From an uncultured Christensenellaceae bacterium (lineage in GTDB: Bacteria > Bacillota > Clostridia > Christensenellales > CAG-1252), in assembly GCA_964408255.1 (NCBI GenBank), contig CAYOYS010000013.1, positions 1 to 19,638 of the forward strand: a stretch of 19,638 nt of DNA. Direction: 5' to 3'. The number at the start of each line of letters is the position of its first letter. Within the stretch, counting starts at the first letter, position 1. The notes beneath the pieces are model-generated. The model was not told the DNA's origin. It did not search any database and worked only from the letters and a program-made list of their open reading frames with translations. Positions 1,727 to 17,865 of this stretch are shown piece by piece. A program made the position numbers and the translations under genes.

Positions 1727-2401
1727 TTATATCTGCGGTTTGTCATTTAATATGAAGCGGTTCTTGTTATACGCGATTATGCCCTCTTTTTGCATTTTTG
1801 AAAGCTCAAAGGACAACGCGCTTCGCTCAACCAACAAATAATCGGCGAGCTGCTGTCTGTTAAAAGGAATGAAAAAATCTTTTTTGCCGACCTTTTTGTA
1901 CTCGTCCGAAAGATAGGCAATGACCTTTTCGCGCGTTGAGCGTTGTGATACGTGTTGCAGCTTCCTTGTTATTAAAAAGTTTTTGTCCGCGATAAGAGCC
2001 ATGAGGTTGCGGATAAGACGATTGTGAAATTCGCAAGCCGAGGTGCATACGGTTACGAAGCGTTTGAAATCGAAAAACAATATCTCGCTGTTTTCGACCG
2101 CCAAAACATTGACATTCAAGGGTCTGTGCTCGGAAAATGCAAAAACTTCTCCGAACAGTTTGCCCGGCCCGATGTGGGAAATGATGCTTCTGTTCCCCCA
2201 AAAATCCTCTTGTACAATGTGCACCGCTCCCATATAGACCATGCCGAACGAGCGTATATGGTCGCCTTCTTTGAAAATAAGCTGTCCCGCTTTGTACTGC
2301 ATGCTCGAATACGTGATGCAATTAAGGACTGCGGATATTTCGTAGTCTTTTATATTCGTGAATAGTCCGGTACCGCTTAAAAATTCTAAATATTTATTCA
2401 T
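1727..2401 (-). CDS. Crp/Fnr-family transcriptional regulator (cNMP-binding-like domain plus C-terminal HTH). By genomic context it is a candidate HcpR-type regulator of the adjacent hcp locus.
   Basis: Start trimmed to MNKYLEF (ATG at 2399-2401), preceded by AAAGGAAAAAA. Effector domain run GDHIRSFGMVYMGAVHIV...GPGKLFGEVFAF. C-terminal HTH region SQRSTREKVIAYL...FNRQQLADYLLVERSALSFELSKMQKEGII. Divergent from hcp-associated genes. Confidence 0.8.
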   Translation of the reverse strand: MNKYLEFLSGTGLFTNIKDYEISAVLNCITYSSMQYKAGQLIFKEGDHIRSFGMVYMGAVHIVQEDFWGNRSIISHIGPGKLFGEVFAFSEHRPLNVNVLAVENSEILFFDFKRFVTVCTSACEFHNRLIRNLMALIADKNFLITRKLQHVSQRSTREKVIAYLSDEYKKVGKKDFFIPFNRQQLADYLLVERSALSFELSKMQKEGIIAYNKNRFILNDKPQI

Positions 2402-2414
2402 TTTTTCCTTTTTG

Positions 2415-2428
2415 GTTGTAAAAACAAC
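2415..2428. promoter_or_regulatory. Candidate Crp/Fnr(HcpR)-type operator GTTGT-AAAA-ACAAC (5-4-5 inverted repeat) in the divergent intergenic region. A TATAGT -10-like hexamer lies at 2447-2452.
   Basis: Inverted repeat read directly from the sequence. FNR-like 5-4-5 spacing. Its centre is about 28 bp upstream of the TATAGT hexamer and 57 bp upstream of the 4Fe-4S gene start. Confidence 0.4.
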
Positions 2429-2484
2429 TGATTTATTTGGTTTATTATAGTACAATGAATATGAAAAATCAAGGAGGCGGAGCA

Positions 2485-3189
2485 ATGATTAGAAAAATAA
2501 TTAAGATAGATGAAGATAAATGCAACGGATGCGGTGCTTGCGTTACCGCCTGCCACGAGGGCGCAATCGGAATGGTTAATGGCAAAGCAAAGCTTTTGCG
2601 TGATGATTATTGCGACGGGTTGGGCGATTGTCTGCCTAGCTGTCCGACGGGAGCGATATCCTTCGAGGAGCGAGAGGCTGCCGAGTTTGACGAAGCGGCG
2701 GTCTTAAAGAATAAGAGAAAACAACAATCCGAAGTATTGCCTTGCGGCTGTCCCGGATTACATTCCAAGTCCATTAATAGACAACCTCAGCAAGAGGCGA
2801 CCTCTTGCGCGTCAAGCGAGCAGGAGAGCAGACTTGCGCAATGGCCCGTTCAAATCAAGCTTGCGCCGCTCAATGCTCCGTATTTTGCAGGTGCTAGACT
2901 TCTGATAGCGGCGGATTGCGCGGCATACGCTTATGCGTCCTTTCACGAAAGGTTTATCAAGGGGCATATTGTTCTGATAGGCTGTCCCAAGCTTGATTCT
3001 GTGGACTATTCGGAAAAGCTTGCAGAGATTATAAAAAGAAACGATATAAAAAGTATCACAATAGTAAGAATGGAAGTTCCTTGTTGCGGCGGTTTGGAAA
3101 ATGCGGCGAAGAAAGCCATTCAAAACAGTGGAAAATTTCTGCCGTGGCAGATAATAACTATTTCAACCGACGGAAAAATAATGTATTAA
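2485..3189 (+). CDS. 4Fe-4S ferredoxin-domain protein with an uncharacterised Cys-containing C-terminal domain.
   Basis: AAGGAGG RBS at 2471-2477, ATG at 2485. Two cluster motifs CNGCGACVTAC and CDGLGDCLPSCP. C-terminal domain contains ...IGCPKLD...VPCCGG. First gene of the putative hcp locus. Confidence 0.75.
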   Translation: MIRKIIKIDEDKCNGCGACVTACHEGAIGMVNGKAKLLRDDYCDGLGDCLPSCPTGAISFEEREAAEFDEAAVLKNKRKQQSEVLPCGCPGLHSKSINRQPQQEATSCASSEQESRLAQWPVQIKLAPLNAPYFAGARLLIAADCAAYAYASFHERFIKGHIVLIGCPKLDSVDYSEKLAEIIKRNDIKSITIVRMEVPCCGGLENAAKKAIQNSGKFLPWQIITISTDGKIMY

Positions 3190-3204
3190 TAGGAGGTCGA
3201 ATTT

Positions 3205-3516
3205 ATGATAGAAAAAGAATATAAGTTAACTCAAACCAATGAAAAGAAGATAGAAAAGATTCTCTTCGATGAAAACATCAACTATAACCATATGGTCTTG
3301 CCAAAAGGTGACGCGCTGCCCGAGCATTATTCCAATTCCAACGTATATATGACGGTACTTCGCGGAGTGTTATCTATCGGGCTTGACGAACAGAATATCC
3401 ATGAATACGGCGCGGGAACCTTGCTAAAAATCCCGAACAAAACCAAAATGAACGTTAGAAATCTGCATGACGAAGTGTTGGAGCTTACCGTTGTAAAAGC
3501 ACCCGCGCCCAAGTAA
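3205..3516 (+). CDS. Small cupin-fold protein.
   Basis: AGGAGG RBS at 3191-3196, ATG at 3205. About 100 aa with the cupin-like pattern HYSNSNVYMTVLRGVLSIG...G.L.KIP. Sits within the hcp locus. Confidence 0.65.
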   Translation: MIEKEYKLTQTNEKKIEKILFDENINYNHMVLPKGDALPEHYSNSNVYMTVLRGVLSIGLDEQNIHEYGAGTLLKIPNKTKMNVRNLHDEVLELTVVKAPAPK

Positions 3517-3522
3517 TAGGAA

Positions 3523-3683
3523 CTGCCTTGCTTTGCAGAACCGACCGAGCAAGCTGGTAATTGCCTTACCGACCGAGCAAGCCGGTAATTGCCTTGCTTT
3601 GCAGAACCGACCGAGCAAGCCGATAACTGCCTTGCTTTGCAGAACCGACCGAGCAAGCCGATAACTGCTTTGCTTTGCAGAAC
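3523..3683. repeat. Tandem array of about 4.5 copies of a 38-bp GC-rich unit (TGCCTTGCTTTGCAGAACCGACCGAGCAAGCCGATAAC). Each unit contains an internal inverted repeat. One copy carries an 11-bp deletion.
   Basis: Units at 3523-3561, 3562-3589 (short), 3590-3627, 3628-3665 and 3666-3683 (partial). Units 3 and 4 are identical. No unique spacers, so it is not CRISPR. Confidence 0.85.
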
Positions 3684-3772
3684 GATATAGGCAAAAATAT
3701 GCAAGATATATGCGGATTCAAAGTGAATATTGCAGAATAATCAATAATAATTTATAAAAAAGGAGAACAAAA

Positions 3773-3937
3773 ATGGAAAAATACGTTTGTATACCGTGCG
3801 GATATGTTTATGACCCCGCGATTGGTGACCCCGACGGGAAAATTGCACCGGGCACGTCTTTTGATGCGCTGCCAAACGATTGGCAATGCCCGATATGTTA
3901 TGTCGGCAAAGAGGATTTTGAAGCTGTAACGGAATAA
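3773..3937 (+). CDS. rub: Rubredoxin (54 aa). It is not in the supplied ORF track because it is short.
   Basis: AAGGAGAA RBS at 3760-3767, ATG at 3773. Translation [54 protein letters not shown] with the two CxxCG-type knuckles (CIPCGY and CPICYVGK) and the conserved W.CP motif. Confidence 0.9.
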
Positions 3938-3948
3938 AGGAGGAAGTT

Positions 3949-5577
3949 ATGAGTATGTTTTGTTATCAATGTCAAGAAACTGCGGGCAACAAAGGTTGCA
4001 CAATCCGCGGTGTATGCGGCAAGAATGAAGAAGTTGCAAAACTGCAAGATTTGTTGATTTATACCTTAAAAGGCATCGCGGAGATTGTGGTAAAGAACAA
4101 AGTCGACGTCAAAACTATCGATAACATCAATTTTGAGGTGTTAAGCAGTCTGTTTATGACCATAACCAACGCGAACTTCGATGACGGCTCGATTGAAACT
4201 CAAATCAAAAAGATGCTTGAGTTAAGGAATTCTTTGAGGGCTGCTAATAAGTTGACGGATTATCATGATGCCGCGGTATTCGAGGCGGAAGATAGAGCGG
4301 CGATGCTAATAAAGGCATCCGAAGTCGGCATACTTGCTACCGAAGACGAGGATATACGCTCTCTTACTCAAATGATTACATACGGGCTTAAGGGTATGGC
4401 GGCGTACGCGGAGCATGCGAAAAATATCGGGAAAGAAAACCTTGAGATTAACGCCTTTATATACGAGGCACTGTCCGCGACACTCGATGAGAAACTTACA
4501 GTCACGGATTTGGTAGCTTTGACTTTGAAGACCGGCGAATTCGGCGTTAAGGCAATGGCACTACTCGACGAAGCCAACCGCTCACGGTTCGGCAACCCCG
4601 AGATAACCGAGGTCAATATCGGTGTGAGAGGCAATCCCGCGATATTGATTACCGGACACGATATGATTGACCTTGAGCAACTGCTCGAACAGACGAAGGG
4701 AACGGGAGTAGATGTCTATACACATAGCGAGATGTTGCCGTCGCATTATTATCCCGCATTCAAAAAATATCCTAATTTTGTGGGCAACTACGGCAACGCA
4801 TGGTGGAAGCAGCTTGACGAGTTCGTATCTTTTCGCGGACCAATTCTGTTCACTACCAACTGTATCGTTCCGCCAAGAAGCGAGGAAGTAAAAAACAGAA
4901 TTTTTACCACCGGCGCAACCGGCTATCCGGGGTGTAAGCATATTCAAGCGGATAAAAACGGAAAAAAAGATTTTTCAGAAATCATCGCGCTTGCTAAGAC
5001 ACTTCCCCCGCCCCAAGAGATAGAAACGGGCAGTATTGTCGGAGGCTTTGCGCACAATCAGGTGCTTGCGCTTGCCGACAAGATTATAGCGGAGGTAAGT
5101 AGCGGGGCAATTAAGAAGTTCTTTGTTATGGCAGGCTGCGACGGACGTATGAAATCTAGAGATTATTATACTCAATTCGCTGAGAAACTGCCTAAAGATA
5201 CTGTAATACTCACCGCGGGTTGCGCTAAGTACCGCTACAACAAGCTAGAGCTTGGCGATATTAAAGGGATACCTAGAGTGCTTGACGCGGGGCAGTGCAA
5301 CGACTCCTATTCTTTGGCGGTAATTGCGCTTGCGCTAAAGGACGCTTTTGGGTTGGACGACATCAACAAACTGCCGATAGTATTCAATATCGCTTGGTAT
5401 GAGCAAAAAGCCGTTATCGTATTGCTTGCGTTGCTGTACTTAGGTGTAAAGAATATCCACCTTGGACCCACGCTCCCGGGGTTTTTATCTCCGAACGTAG
5501 CTAAGGTATTGATTGAGAAGTTTAATATTGCGGGCATAGGAACGGTAGAAGACGATCTAAAGTTATTTTTAGAATAA
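3949..5577 (+). CDS. hcp: Hybrid cluster protein (hydroxylamine reductase / NO-detoxifying Hcp).
   Basis: AAGGAGGA RBS then ATG at 3949. N-terminal Cys motif [23 protein letters not shown] is diagnostic for Hcp. Length about 540 aa. Rubredoxin immediately upstream and a Crp/Fnr regulator nearby. Confidence 0.95.
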
Positions 5578-5768
5578 AATAATAATAAGCACATTACTTC
5601 CGATAACGATAGCGCAACATATAACAAAGCTATTGAATCAATCATATAGGGCGAATTGTTTCCTATAATGATAGCGCAACAAACACAATATTTTAGAATA
5701 AACAATCATATAGCGTATTACTTCCGAGGACAATAGCGCAATAAATTGCAAGATTTTAGAATAAAATC
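5567..5768. repeat. Tandem array of three degenerate units of about 64 bp. The first unit begins inside the last codons of hcp (TTTTTAGAATAAAAT). Units share the pattern ..TTCC(G/T)A(T/G)(A/G)A(C/T)(G/A)ATAGCGCAA(C/T)A...ATTTTAGAATAAA.
   Basis: The pattern ttagaataaa(a/c).. recurs at 5569, 5691 and 5753. GATAGCGCAACA recurs at 5608 and 5672, with CAATAGCGCAATA at 5729. Period 59-64 bp. Confidence 0.75.
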
Positions 5769-5833: not shown

Positions 5834-5978
5834 GGACAATTTCGAGTCGGCAATATTTTGTGTCTTTTCAGTTTATATCCGTCATCGGCACTAAGCAGCT
5901 AAATTTTTCACAACATAGCGCTACTATGAGTAAAAAGTTTGACAAACCAATCTCGAAAATCATTCAAAATATTCATCA
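5834..5978. repeat. Copy A of a modular interspersed repeat (element X). Conserved left arm CAAT(T/C)TCGAGT..AATATTTTG..TCTTTTCAG, conserved block ATATCCGTCATCGGCA, a copy-specific centre, and a conserved right arm AATCTCGAAAATCATTCAAAATATTCATCA. The arms are imperfect inverted repeats of each other.
   Basis: Aligns along its length with 14036-14196 and 17705-17831 (estimated 70-80 percent identity in the arms). Left arm ATATTTTGtgTCTTTTCAg matches the reverse complement of right arm gaAAATCAttcAAAATAT. Confidence 0.7.
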
Positions 5979-6055
5979 ACACTCTTATGTCTACTTCTAT
6001 TATTGCGCCGTATGTGTTGCGCAATCGAGTGTATGTTAAGCGTAGTATGGCGCTT

Positions 6056-7560: not shown

Positions 7561-8568
7561 ATGGCGGCGATAGACACGGTCAAAAAACGCAAGGTTGCGC
7601 ATATACTTTCCGAAATATTGAAAAATGGTGAGGTGTGCAAGCTTGCGCTTAGAACGGCAACGGGGTACAGTACAACGACTGTTGATTCCGCGCTCAAGAA
7701 CCTTTCGGAACAAAGAATAATAACCATTGGCGAGAAAAAGAGCGGGGCAGGGAGCAGAAAGATTGCGATAAGCGCGAATCCACGCATAGTAATTGCGGGA
7801 GTCAGTTATTATCGTATGAAGCTGTACGGCAAGCTCATGCAGCTTGACGGCAAAATTGTAGCAACCGGCGAAAAGGAGCTTAACGAATCCCATTGCGACC
7901 TATCAGACAGCGTTACCGCGTTGATTGAAAGCATGCTAAGCGCAAGTCCTACTCTTGCCGCAATCGGCGTTTCGGTAGCTATGGGCGATAGCACGAGCTT
8001 TGCACGGATACTTGCTTTAAGGTTTTCTGTGCCCGTTCATGTGTCAGACAGCCTTTCGGCGCTCGCAATGTATTATCGATATAAGGTTAAAAAGAATAAC
8101 ACAAACCTCGCAGTTCTTTACGCGGGTAAGCGAATTCGCTCGGTCAAGGTCAAGGAATGGGGGGAGGATATTGAGCTTGGCAACTTGCTTTCGCCGATTA
8201 TTTCGGCAAAAAAAGGTAGGCTGATTTATGACGAGGTACTGTCCGCGGAGGCGGTAAGACACCGTATGCGGCAAAAGTTCGGCAAGGCGGAGACCGCGTT
8301 CGAGGCGGGAACGCTCGAGCCGGAAATCTCCTTTTATGCCAAGCAATTGCAGTATGCGCTAGGCGAGCTTATATTGCTTATTGACAAGACGGTTAAGCCG
8401 TCCGCGATAATTACCGCGGGAGAATATATGACCAAAGAGCTTATAGAAGGAAGCCTTGACAGCTTAGCCGGCGGCGTCCGCGCCGAAGTTGTTTGCTTTG
8501 AGAAAGGGCGCGACGAGATTATCGAAGGAGCATGCTATATCGCGTACAACGGATTATGTTATTATTAA
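7561..8568 (+). CDS. ROK-like (NagC/XylR-fold) protein with an N-terminal HTH. Probably a transcriptional regulator. The zinc-Cys ROK signature is not evident.
   Basis: N-terminal HTH region LRTATGYSTTTVDSALKNLSEQRII, followed by an actin-like ATPase-fold start RIVIAGVSYYRMKLYG. Divergent from the esterase operon. Confidence 0.55.
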   Translation: MAAIDTVKKRKVAHILSEILKNGEVCKLALRTATGYSTTTVDSALKNLSEQRIITIGEKKSGAGSRKIAISANPRIVIAGVSYYRMKLYGKLMQLDGKIVATGEKELNESHCDLSDSVTALIESMLSASPTLAAIGVSVAMGDSTSFARILALRFSVPVHVSDSLSALAMYYRYKVKKNNTNLAVLYAGKRIRSVKVKEWGEDIELGNLLSPIISAKKGRLIYDEVLSAEAVRHRMRQKFGKAETAFEAGTLEPEISFYAKQLQYALGELILLIDKTVKPSAIITAGEYMTKELIEGSLDSLAGGVRAEVVCFEKGRDEIIEGACYIAYNGLCYY

Positions 8569-8576
8569 TGCGTCAA

Positions 8577-8880
8577 TAGCGCAACAAAATCCGTCTTTAA
8601 CTTGCAGTGTTGCAAGGCTTTAATTAGCCCGATAAAATCCATTTTAATTACGGTGTAGCAATATTTTGATTATATCGCGAATAAAAGTCGTTATAATTGC
8701 GGTATTGTAATTTTGATTATAGCGCGAATAAAATCTACACTAACTTGCGGTATTGTAATATTTTGATTATAGCGCGAATAAAATCTACACTAACTTGCGG
8801 TATTGTAATATTTTGATTATAGCGTGAATAAGATTTGTATTATTACAGTGTTGCAATGTTTTGATTTATCTATAATATTT
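8577..8880. repeat. Tandem array of about six units of a 47-52 bp AT-rich repeat. Two units are identical 50-mers (8713-8762 and 8763-8812): TTGATTATAGCGCGAATAAAATCTACACTAACTTGCGGTATTGTAATATT.
   Basis: Period of 50 read directly from the sequence. Degenerate flanking copies at 8577-8628, 8629-8665, 8666-8712 and 8813-8880. Not spacer-separated. Each unit boundary gives TTGCGG-17-TATAGC and TTGATT-17-TACACT promoter-like spacings. Confidence 0.85.
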
Positions 8881-12097: not shown

Positions 12098-12150
12098 ATC
12101 GGCACAGTTACAATCGGCACAGTTACAATCGGCACAGTTACAATCGGCGC
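12098..12150. repeat. Three perfect 15-bp tandem repeats ATCGGCACAGTTACA plus a degenerate fourth, immediately after the flotillin stop.
   Basis: Units at 12098-12112, 12113-12127 and 12128-12142, read directly from the sequence. Confidence 0.85.
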
Positions 12151-12517: not shown

Positions 12518-13165
12518 CTAATGGATAAAAGATTTGTACTCTTTGCCGTAATATGTCTTAGCAAGCTTACTAAGCAGCGTTTGAAGAGGTAAAAAGCATA
12601 CCGCGACTATCAAGCCGTTAGATATAACGTGTGTGATATAGAACGCGACACCACGCAAATATATTATCGGAAAGAGAACGGTGATTGCAAAATCGGTCTT
12701 TGCCGAGCCGACGAGCGCATCGACAAAGCTTGTCAGCACTCCGAATAACGCGCTGCACAGCACGGCAAGCGCGGTATATGGCATGATAAGCATACTTTTA
12801 TTGCTTATATTTTCGTCGTGTTGCGCGCGCATTAGCTTCGCAAGCAGACAACTTAAGCATGCAAGCATGGGCCAATAGATAAAATAGGATATCACCCAAG
12901 TATTAAAGCCCCAAATCATCGTTTCGATAGTTACGAAGATTAAAGTCGCGGTAACGGATATCTTCATACCGAACACATACGCATAGACTATGATTAAGAG
13001 CGTCACTATCTCGATATTGGGTATAAAGGAAAGCGCGAGCTTACCGCCCGTTAGGACGGCGGTAAGCATCGCGATAAGCACGATATCCTTGATTGTCTTT
13101 AGGCGGCTTTCCAATCTTATTCGAGAATTATAAATGCATCCTCGTTGACGGTAGAGGATATCCAA
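12518..13165 (-). CDS. ECF-transporter S-component-like small polytopic membrane protein (about 190-215 aa). Under cobalamin-riboswitch control, so it is a candidate cobalamin (CbrT-like) substrate-capture component.
   Basis: N-terminus KTIKDIVLIAMLTAVLTGG resembles the start of ECF S components. Five or six TM segments. The longest ORF starts with TTG at 13163-13165, inside the upstream gene. The real start may be the TTG at 13112-13114 (2 nt after the upstream stop) or the GTG just after AAGGA. Co-oriented directly downstream of the riboswitch-controlled lipoprotein gene. Confidence 0.6.
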   Translation of the reverse strand: MDILYRQRGCIYNSRIRLESRLKTIKDIVLIAMLTAVLTGGKLALSFIPNIEIVTLLIIVYAYVFGMKISVTATLIFVTIETMIWGFNTWVISYFIYWPMLACLSCLLAKLMRAQHDENISNKSMLIMPYTALAVLCSALFGVLTSFVDALVGSAKTDFAITVLFPIIYLRGVAFYITHVISNGLIVAVCFLPLQTLLSKLAKTYYGKEYKSFIH

Positions 13166-13605
13166 TCCTCGCCGAAGGTCACGGTGCAGAACAAATACGA
13201 TACTCCGTCAATTACCGGCATTGCGCTCGCTCCGAGTCCCGCGCTGTAGTAGGTAACGTCGCCGTAAAGTAGGTTGGTTATGGTAGCATCTATATAGTTA
13301 ACGTCGCTGCTGCTTAAGTAAAACATAATACTAGTACGCGTCTCATTGTCCGATACCAATTCTTTTTCCACTCCCTTTATTGAGGTTATCATTATACCGT
13401 AGATGCTTTCCGTGTAGGTCAGCTCGAGCGAACCCGCTTCATCGAGCGCTATCAAAAGAGCCGCAAGACTGTCGTAGCTTCCTTCGGGTATTGCGATGAC
13501 CTCACCGACCGCAGGCACAACCGTGGGGTTATTGTCGCAGGCGAATAGGGATGCCGAGATTATTACAATAAGTAATATAACGATTAAAGGTTTTAGTTTT
13601 TTCAT
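13117..13605 (-). CDS. Small secreted lipoprotein (about 145 aa mature) of unknown family, first gene behind a cobalamin riboswitch.
   Basis: Start trimmed to MKKLKPLIVILLIVIISASLFAC (ATG at 13603-13605) with AGGAGG six nt upstream. Signal peptide plus lipobox LFAC. The long N-terminal extension in the ORF track (MRRQ...) overlaps structured RNA and is rejected. Confidence 0.75.
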   Translation of the reverse strand: MKKLKPLIVILLIVIISASLFACDNNPTVVPAVGEVIAIPEGSYDSLAALLIALDEAGSLELTYTESIYGIMITSIKGVEKELVSDNETRTSIMFYLSSSDVNYIDATITNLLYGDVTYYSAGLGASAMPVIDGVSYLFCTVTFGEDWISSTVNEDAFIILE

Positions 13606-13780
13606 ATGCTTCCTCCTATAATAACCGGTATTATACCGCAGGGCAAGCCCTGCACCCGATGCCTTCGGCATCTGCCGCCGCAAGCGGCGGGTATTAGACC
13701 TTGTTGTTAGCGTTCATAAAAATGCCCTTGCGAGCAAGCATTTTTACTCCGCTAATAAAAAAATACCTTATTTCATAAGG

Positions 13781-13808
13781 AAAAAAGGTAAGGCGAAAGC
13801 CCTTAACC
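13781..13808 (-). terminator. Riboswitch expression-platform terminator (minus strand): GGUUAAGGGC-UUUC-GCCUUACC followed by UUUUUU.
   Basis: Hairpin plus a 6-U tract read from the minus strand, immediately 3' of the cobalamin aptamer. Confidence 0.6.
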
Positions 13809-13809
13809 T

Positions 13810-13975
13810 TCCCTCCCTCCGAGAGCGGCGCAAGCTACGGCTGTGTTCGGTATCCTGGCTTAAGCGGCAATCTTGCCTCGCCGACCTTCCCGTTAAGTGG
13901 TCTTTGGCGATTTCGCTTTTACAGTAGCGGGGGCTGCGGCGGTATCTAACCGCCTTCCCGAATCAACAACCTGTA
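13810..13975 (-). promoter_or_regulatory. Cobalamin (AdoCbl) riboswitch aptamer.
   Basis: Minus-strand RNA carries the hallmark blocks in order: GGGAAGGCGGU...AUACC, GCAGCCCCCGCUACUGU (B12-box variant), CCACUUAACGGGAAGG and AGCCAGGAUACC. This matches the conserved Cobalamin-family core that I recall. The family assignment is established knowledge; I could not run a covariance-model search. Confidence 0.85.
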
Positions 13976-13987
13976 TTTATTTATTTT

Positions 13988-14016
13988 ATTATACCGCCAC
14001 TTTGTAAAAAATTCAA
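13988..14016 (-). promoter_or_regulatory. Minus-strand promoter TTGAAT-17-TATAAT driving the riboswitch operon.
   Basis: Reverse complement of ATTCAA at 14011-14016 and ATTATA at 13988-13993, with a 17-bp spacer. Predicted TSS a few nt before the aptamer. Confidence 0.55.
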
Positions 14017-14035: not shown

Positions 14036-14196
14036 GCGAGCAATTTTGAGTTGTAATATTTGGGGTTTTTTAATCTCATATCCTTAATCGGTACTTAAGC
14101 GCTTAAATCTTGCCTATCACTAACATTCAAATTATAGCGATAGAAGTAAAAAAATGACGAATCTAATCTCGAAAATCCATTCAAAACATTTTATCA
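14036..14196. repeat. Copy B of modular repeat element X. It lies between the divergent riboswitch-operon promoter and the surface-protein promoter.
   Basis: Left arm CAATTTTGAGTTGTAATATTTGGGGTTTTTTAATCTCATATCCTTAATCGGTA. Central palindrome TTAAGCGCTTAA. Right arm AATCTCGAAAATCCATTCAAAACATTTTATCA. Aligns with copies A and C. Confidence 0.7.
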
Positions 14197-14260
14197 GCTC
14201 ACTTTTGTTCGCTTCTATGCGAATAAAACTTACATTTTTTAATTGTGAAAGTTATTTAAC

Positions 14261-17704: not shown

Positions 17705-17831
17705 GGACAATCTCGAGTTGTTAATATTTTGAGGTCTTTTCAGCTCATATCCGTCATCGGCATTAAAACGCCTAATTCTTTCAAGAATTAGGCAAATCTA
17801 GTCTTGAAAATCCAATCAAAATATTTTATCA
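17705..17831. repeat. Copy C of modular repeat element X, with a perfect central hairpin GCCTAATTCTT-TCA-AAGAATTAGGC.
   Basis: Left arm GGACAATCTCGAGTTGTTAATATTTTGAGGTCTTTTCAGCTCATATCCGTCATCGGCA. Right arm AAATCTAGTCTTGAAAATCCAATCAAAATATTTTATCA. The left arm is about 20/25 complementary to the right arm. Confidence 0.7.
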
Positions 17832-17865
17832 TTCTCTTTTGCCATTCCTTATTAGCGCGGAGTTG

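Follow-up and report, generated by a model that had tools for sequence, protein, structure and literature searches.

We analysed a 19,638-nt stretch of DNA from an uncultured Christensenellaceae bacterium (contig CAYOYS010000013.1 of GenBank assembly GCA_964408255.1; hereafter the window), whose minus strand carries a cobalamin riboswitch followed by genes for a small lipoprotein and a polytopic membrane protein. The locus is very probably a cbrS-cbrT-type operon of two genes that B12 represses. This reading is based on the identification of the riboswitch, the homologies and folds of the two proteins, and the strict linkage of their genes. It is a divergent copy of a named module and no new kind of system. 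The names cbrS and cbrT are said to have been introduced by Rodionov et al. in 2009. A sequence-only reading of the same DNA had proposed a B12 capture and uptake module with a pairing undescribed in Firmicutes. Our results point to such a function, but the pairing is not new: the membrane protein is a CbrT homologue, a DUF4430 gene stands at the cbrS position in three lactobacilli, and a prediction along these lines dates from 2007 (PMC1796856).

The membrane protein was compared with the PDB using a profile built from 36 homologues. At E-values up to 10 this yields a single match, namely chain A of 6FNP (CbrT; E = 2.4e-14), spanning residues 3-176 of 182. Scans with Pfam and NCBIfam give only a sub-threshold PF07155 match, and the approximately 100 homologues found by a word-indexed search are mostly unnamed proteins from metagenome-assembled genomes (MAGs) of Clostridia. 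The predicted fold is that of a six-helix S component of an energy-coupling factor (ECF) transporter. Helix 1 contains the AxxxA motif for EcfT docking: the window protein has AMLTA, whose second alanine is invariant in the 36 homologues and which aligns with ALLTA in CbrT 6FNP. CbrT binds cobalamins and cobinamide with high affinity and supports ATP-dependent uptake via a shared ECF module (PMC5997447). Given the sole PDB match to CbrT, the conserved AxxxA motif and the B12 transport by CbrT, the membrane protein is therefore, as judged from sequence comparison and the predicted model, a CbrT-family S component. This agrees with the sequence-only reading, which described a CbrT/BtuM-like protein of roughly 190 aa; the actual length is 198 aa from a TTG start (13114, 2 nt past the lipoprotein stop) or 187 aa from a GTG start (13081, the NCBI call), and of the two named families the profile matches CbrT alone. 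BtuM-like, BtuF-like and CbiM/N (cobalt) readings were rejected based on the structural matches, the CbrT-only profile match and the predicted fold.

The lipoprotein gene is preceded by a Shine-Dalgarno sequence (AGGAGG, 13617-13612) located 6 nt ahead of the open reading frame (ORF). Its lipobox LFAC is as first described, with the lipobox cysteine at residue 23, so the mature protein counts 140 aa instead of the approximately 145 aa given earlier. The family had been called unrecognisable, but structure and profile methods place it as a divergent transcobalamin-beta/SLBB/DUF4430 protein. In the AlphaFold model (predicted local distance difference test score 84.8) a helix is followed by a beta-hairpin inside a beta-grasp, and a hairpin after this helix is the hallmark of the transcobalamin-like SLBB clade. 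The five best structural matches are haptocorrin, the DUF4430 protein RUMGNA_00854 (3u7z; root-mean-square deviation 1.5 Å), the isolated transcobalamin beta domain, intrinsic factor and bovine transcobalamin. Thus, of the folds suggested for comparison, transcobalamin and DUF4430 were recovered; BtuG/BtuH were not, and a BtuG/BtuH-like lipoprotein was rejected for lack of fold similarity.

Profile comparisons give a graded picture. The narrower lipoprotein profile (A1) has no match among PDB sequences, whereas the broader one (A3) finds 3u7z (5.3e-5), transcobalamin beta (0.015) and intrinsic factor (0.024). With hhalign, the match of the lipoprotein profiles to the single L. delbrueckii CbrS is weak (probability approximately 10%), against E = 3.7e-5 and a probability of 71% for A3 aligned to three Lactobacillus CbrS sequences. 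The window lipoprotein fails against the Pfam DUF4430 model (PF14478), while 8 of 50 sampled relatives match it at E up to 0.01 (best 2.3e-8). From the structural matches and profile scores the lipoprotein is thus, on these predictions, a divergent member of the transcobalamin-like SLBB (DUF4430) clade. Compared to most of its relatives it has an internal insert and an extra C-terminal strand; the family as a whole differs from Lactobacillus CbrS by an insert (about 17-20 residues) and by an extended C-terminus. Only 5 relatives were obtained with the word-indexed search, against 156 with an exhaustive HMMER profile search, nearly all of them lipoproteins of 140-170 aa. Since the profile search and the locus survey described below found so many, the apparent rarity of the family is a sensitivity artefact.

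For the locus survey, S-component relatives were collected from one genome per GTDB species (348 relatives) and the best 80 of these were examined, mostly from Christensenellales and other Clostridia MAGs. In 77 of the 80 loci the gene immediately upstream, in the same orientation, is a lipoprotein-family ORF; the three exceptions end at a contig edge. Riboswitches of the cobalamin clan are found ahead of the pair in 59 of the 80 (55 RF00174, 4 RF01689). The order riboswitch, lipoprotein, S component is the same for the five close homologues, and the riboswitch precedes the pair in all eight loci that carry them. The arrangement extends to Lactobacillaceae: L. delbrueckii, L. helveticus and Lacticaseibacillus zeae (3/3) have a DUF4430 gene (130-149 aa) directly upstream of cbrT. 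It occupies the published cbrS position, as L. delbrueckii cbrT sits in a nrdJ-cbrS-cbrT-pduO cluster (Santos et al., PMC5997447). A position directly upstream of cbrT or its homologue is consequently common to the window gene, the Clostridia genes and the three Lactobacillaceae genes.

Some of the surveyed loci deviate in their details. RF00174 is replaced by the adenosylcobalamin (AdoCbl)-II riboswitch RF01689 in L032 (2269-2352), L046 (2301-2379), L052 (2243-2344) and L070 (2249-2342), and in L060 the RF00174 match is on the strand opposite to the pair. In locus L009, from a Bacillota MAG, the riboswitch (381-578) is separated from the S component by four tandem lipoprotein paralogues (656-2907), which suggests that the capture protein has been amplified or diversified there.

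The riboswitch itself is the only Rfam family that cmscan identified in the window. It matches RF00174 (Cobalamin) on the minus strand (14007..13831) with 70.5 bits (E = 7e-16) against a gathering score of 31.5 bits. The alignment is full-length (model positions 1-189), with the P2 hairpin of the model missing. The covariance search thereby bears out the minus-strand AdoCbl riboswitch of the sequence-only reading, and the four aptamer blocks quoted there are all present in the minus-strand read. The consensus promoter it named, TTGAAT-17-TATAAT, is supported as well: the pattern TTGnnn-17-TAnnAT has an identical alignment position in the window and the five homologous loci (6/6), and transcription therefore probably starts near 13981. 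The 5' strand of the outer P1 helix as placed by Rfam (13988-14007) overlaps the -10 box, and its pairs are flagged as largely non-canonical. Because the conserved promoter lies beneath this strand, the Rfam placement of P1 is wrong. The actual P1 pairs GGUUGU (13971-13966) with ACAGCC (13844-13839, minus strand), downstream of the promoter. Counterparts with other letters are complementary as well, as read by hand from the leader alignment: GGAUUAUU/AAUAAUCU in L007 and L008 and GGUCGGUUUU/GAAGCCGUCC in L001, so the relatives carry the complementary changes expected for P1 of the window riboswitch. Since the true P1 is downstream, the Rfam coordinates extend the aptamer approximately 35 nt too far at its 5' end.

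An intergenic element of about 130 nt occurs three times on the plus strand of the window (5840-6000, 14045-14205 and 17712-17850; mean column identity 73%). One copy immediately precedes the riboswitch promoter, and two are flanked by divergent genes. The element has no Rfam match at the gathering threshold. Candidate explanations are a shared regulatory region, a small RNA and a repeat resembling a miniature inverted-repeat transposable element.

Behind the aptamer we find a plausible terminator-type expression platform, as predicted from sequence and folding. The CCUUACCUUUUUUCC pyrimidine tract is the pairing partner of an invariant CUCUCGGAGGGAG block and a purine tract. Next on the minus strand comes a small hairpin (13780-13766), then a U-run (13765-13757). 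The minimum free energy fold has a z-score of -3.2, and consensus folding retains a 13-bp helix in 6/6 loci. The terminator proposed by the sequence-only reading is thus plausible given the hairpin with its U-tract and the helix in the six loci. The window has in addition a leader insertion that is missing from the five homologous loci. It is predicted to fold into a second terminator-like hairpin (13745-13718) and several GC-rich hairpins (13690-13675, 13672-13658, 13653-13638 and 13637-13627), and it includes a possible 15-codon ORF from ATG 13741 with GGAG ahead. No second copy of the insertion was found in the window, and a repeated mobile element was rejected as its explanation on the same ground.

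Several observations weigh against the cbrS-cbrT operon reading. With regard to regulation, the platform helix shows no compensatory changes or covariation among the six loci; given a helix that is kept without such changes, the terminator-type platform is therefore plausible but unproven. The leader insertion moreover separates the riboswitch terminator from the lipoprotein Shine-Dalgarno sequence. The three Lactobacillaceae cbrS-cbrT loci were found to have no cobalamin riboswitch, so regulation by this element is not common to the whole family. Concerning transport, no EcfA/EcfT genes were found within the 19.6-kb contig. Their absence had been stated before and is also seen in the neighbourhood comparison, and it leaves the dependence on an ECF module as something we infer. 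It might be argued that the membrane protein works solo without such a module, like the solitary BtuM. We consider this highly improbable, given that the profile search returned CbrT as its only match.

The remaining objections concern the lipoprotein. It gives no direct match in Pfam or NCBIfam at E up to 1. Its AlphaFold model was made from an alignment of 6 sequences, and while two of the five models scored well, three scored poorly. The link to DUF4430 consists of a predicted structure, intermediate sequences and moderate profile scores (71%). Finally, an ECF operon of L. sakei encodes a transcobalamin alpha/beta-like pair for which a role with heme has been proposed (bioRxiv 10.1101/864751). 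The lipoprotein might accordingly not bind corrinoids at all: it could be an accessory of the S component (in folding, stability or membrane organisation) or bind another tetrapyrrole such as heme, with CbrT as the only link to B12. The lack of a direct DUF4430 model match, a role in corrinoid contact that is predicted only, the insert and C-terminal extension relative to Lactobacillus CbrS and the L. sakei proposal would all fit this explanation. However, all five top structural matches are either cobalamin carriers or the DUF4430 structure 3u7z, in 59 of the 80 loci the lipoprotein gene comes first behind a B12 riboswitch, and in 77 it is linked to a CbrT homologue. We therefore regard a lipoprotein without a corrinoid ligand as improbable. 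Both this explanation and a BtuM-like solo S component have less support than the cbrS-cbrT operon.

The operon reading leads to the following model. Transcription would begin about 10 nt upstream of the cobalamin riboswitch. With a cobamide bound, the platform (the purine/pyrimidine hairpin with its U-tracts) probably ends transcription; when B12 is scarce, lipoprotein and S component would both be made. After export and lipidation at Cys23, the lipoprotein would be anchored on the outer side of the cytoplasmic membrane, where its transcobalamin-beta-like (SLBB/DUF4430) domain would capture corrinoids. A binding precedent for such capture is the isolated human transcobalamin beta domain, crystallised with cyanocobalamin and with cobinamide (PMC5599065). 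The CbrT homologue would then dock onto a shared EcfA-A'-T module, whose genes lie elsewhere, and import the vitamin by ATP-driven toppling.

A stronger version of this model, in which the CbrS-type lipoprotein is an obligate extracytoplasmic partner that hands corrinoids directly to CbrT, is possible but on balance doubtful. If true, CbrS-type lipoproteins would be substrate-binding proteins for an ECF transporter. ECF transporters are generally described as working without a substrate-binding protein. The linkage (77/80 Clostridia loci, and Lactobacillaceae as well) would in that case be the sign of a widespread two-step route of B12 uptake in Gram-positive gut bacteria, and the Clostridia lipoprotein subfamily, with its insert, its C-terminal strand and its invisibility to Pfam, would represent a structural variant of its own.

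ECF-CbrT serves as the model for B12 transport in Firmicutes, and in the literature searched we found no study of its constant neighbour, nor a biochemical study of any CbrS; experimental work on B12-binding lipoproteins was found for Bacteroides only. Essentially all sampled Clostridia genomes of the Christensenellales type pair their CbrT homologues with a CbrS-like lipoprotein. This near-constant pairing, together with the usual first place behind a B12 riboswitch, argues that extracellular capture belongs to the uptake route. The subfamily is invisible to Pfam and is called hypothetical by annotation pipelines. Its recognition has a bearing on the prediction of B12 auxotrophy and of B12 competition in gut communities.

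Features of the cbrS-cbrT-type locus in the window, in order of transcription.
Feature	Coordinates	Strand	Basis and remarks
Sigma-70-type promoter TTGAAT-17-TATAAT	13988..14016	-	Consensus scan; probable transcription start near 13981
Cobalamin riboswitch aptamer	13831..14007	-	Rfam RF00174 extent; functional bounds set by P1
Expression platform, candidate intrinsic terminator	13757..13825	-	Terminator scan, fold, alignment
Leader insertion (~140 nt), window only	13618..13756	-	Missing from five homologous loci in leader alignment
CbrS-like lipoprotein, 162 aa	13117..13605	-	Signal peptide, lipobox LFAC, Cys23; transcobalamin-beta/SLBB/DUF4430-like domain (predicted)
CbrT-family ECF S component (predicted)	12518..13114	-	Six helices; AxxxA motif (AMLTA) in helix 1

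Intergenic tandem repeats are unusually abundant in the window: a 38-nt unit in four copies (3521-3683), a 62-nt unit in three (5567-5765), a 50-nt unit in five (8567-8859) and a 15-nt unit in three (12098-12148). Unrelated to the cbrS-cbrT finding are a 517-aa ORF with four DUF1508 repeats (34-1587) and a cluster at 1727-5577 that encodes a Crp/Fnr-type regulator, a 4Fe-4S ferredoxin, a cupin and a hybrid-cluster protein (Prismane).

Of the known systems, the cbrS-cbrT pair of Lactobacillales is the one after which we name the locus. Both have a gene for a small exported protein of the DUF4430 type upstream of and abutting the gene for a CbrT-family S component, the homology of the S components spans their full length (E = 2.4e-14), and neither has a dedicated ECF module adjacent. 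L. zeae CbrS is likewise a lipoprotein (lipobox LAGC), whereas in L. delbrueckii CbrS a Lys/Thr-rich linker follows a plain signal peptide. These two differently anchored proteins are the CbrS of loci L089 (96-545) and L091 (3612-4004). Differences with the window are nonetheless clear. The window pair stands alone behind its riboswitch, whereas the Lactobacillus pair is located between nrdJ and pduO; identity between L. delbrueckii CbrT and the window S component is approximately 25-30% as estimated by eye from the alignment; and the window lipoprotein, with its insert and extra C-terminal strand, is too divergent for Pfam DUF4430.

The transcobalamin-like SLBB proteins of low-GC Gram-positives have been described as secreted or surface proteins (Burroughs et al. 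2007, PMC1796856). Their genes accompany CbiO/CbiQ-like (ECF) genes in hosts without B12 synthesis, and they were predicted to scavenge B12 (PMC1796856). Compared to RUMGNA_00854, transcobalamin, haptocorrin and intrinsic factor, the window has no alpha/alpha-toroid partner domain or gene, and its lipoprotein is lipid-anchored whereas carriers of the RUMGNA_00854/transcobalamin type rely on sortase or secretion. The window protein shares approximately 15-17% sequence identity with its structural matches, and its binding of B12 is a prediction. BtuM (solitary; 6FFV/8OVV) shares the six-helix S-component fold and the link to B12. In concept the locus also resembles BtuG/BtuH/BtuJ of Bacteroides, where a riboswitch-controlled surface lipoprotein captures B12 and feeds a membrane transporter.
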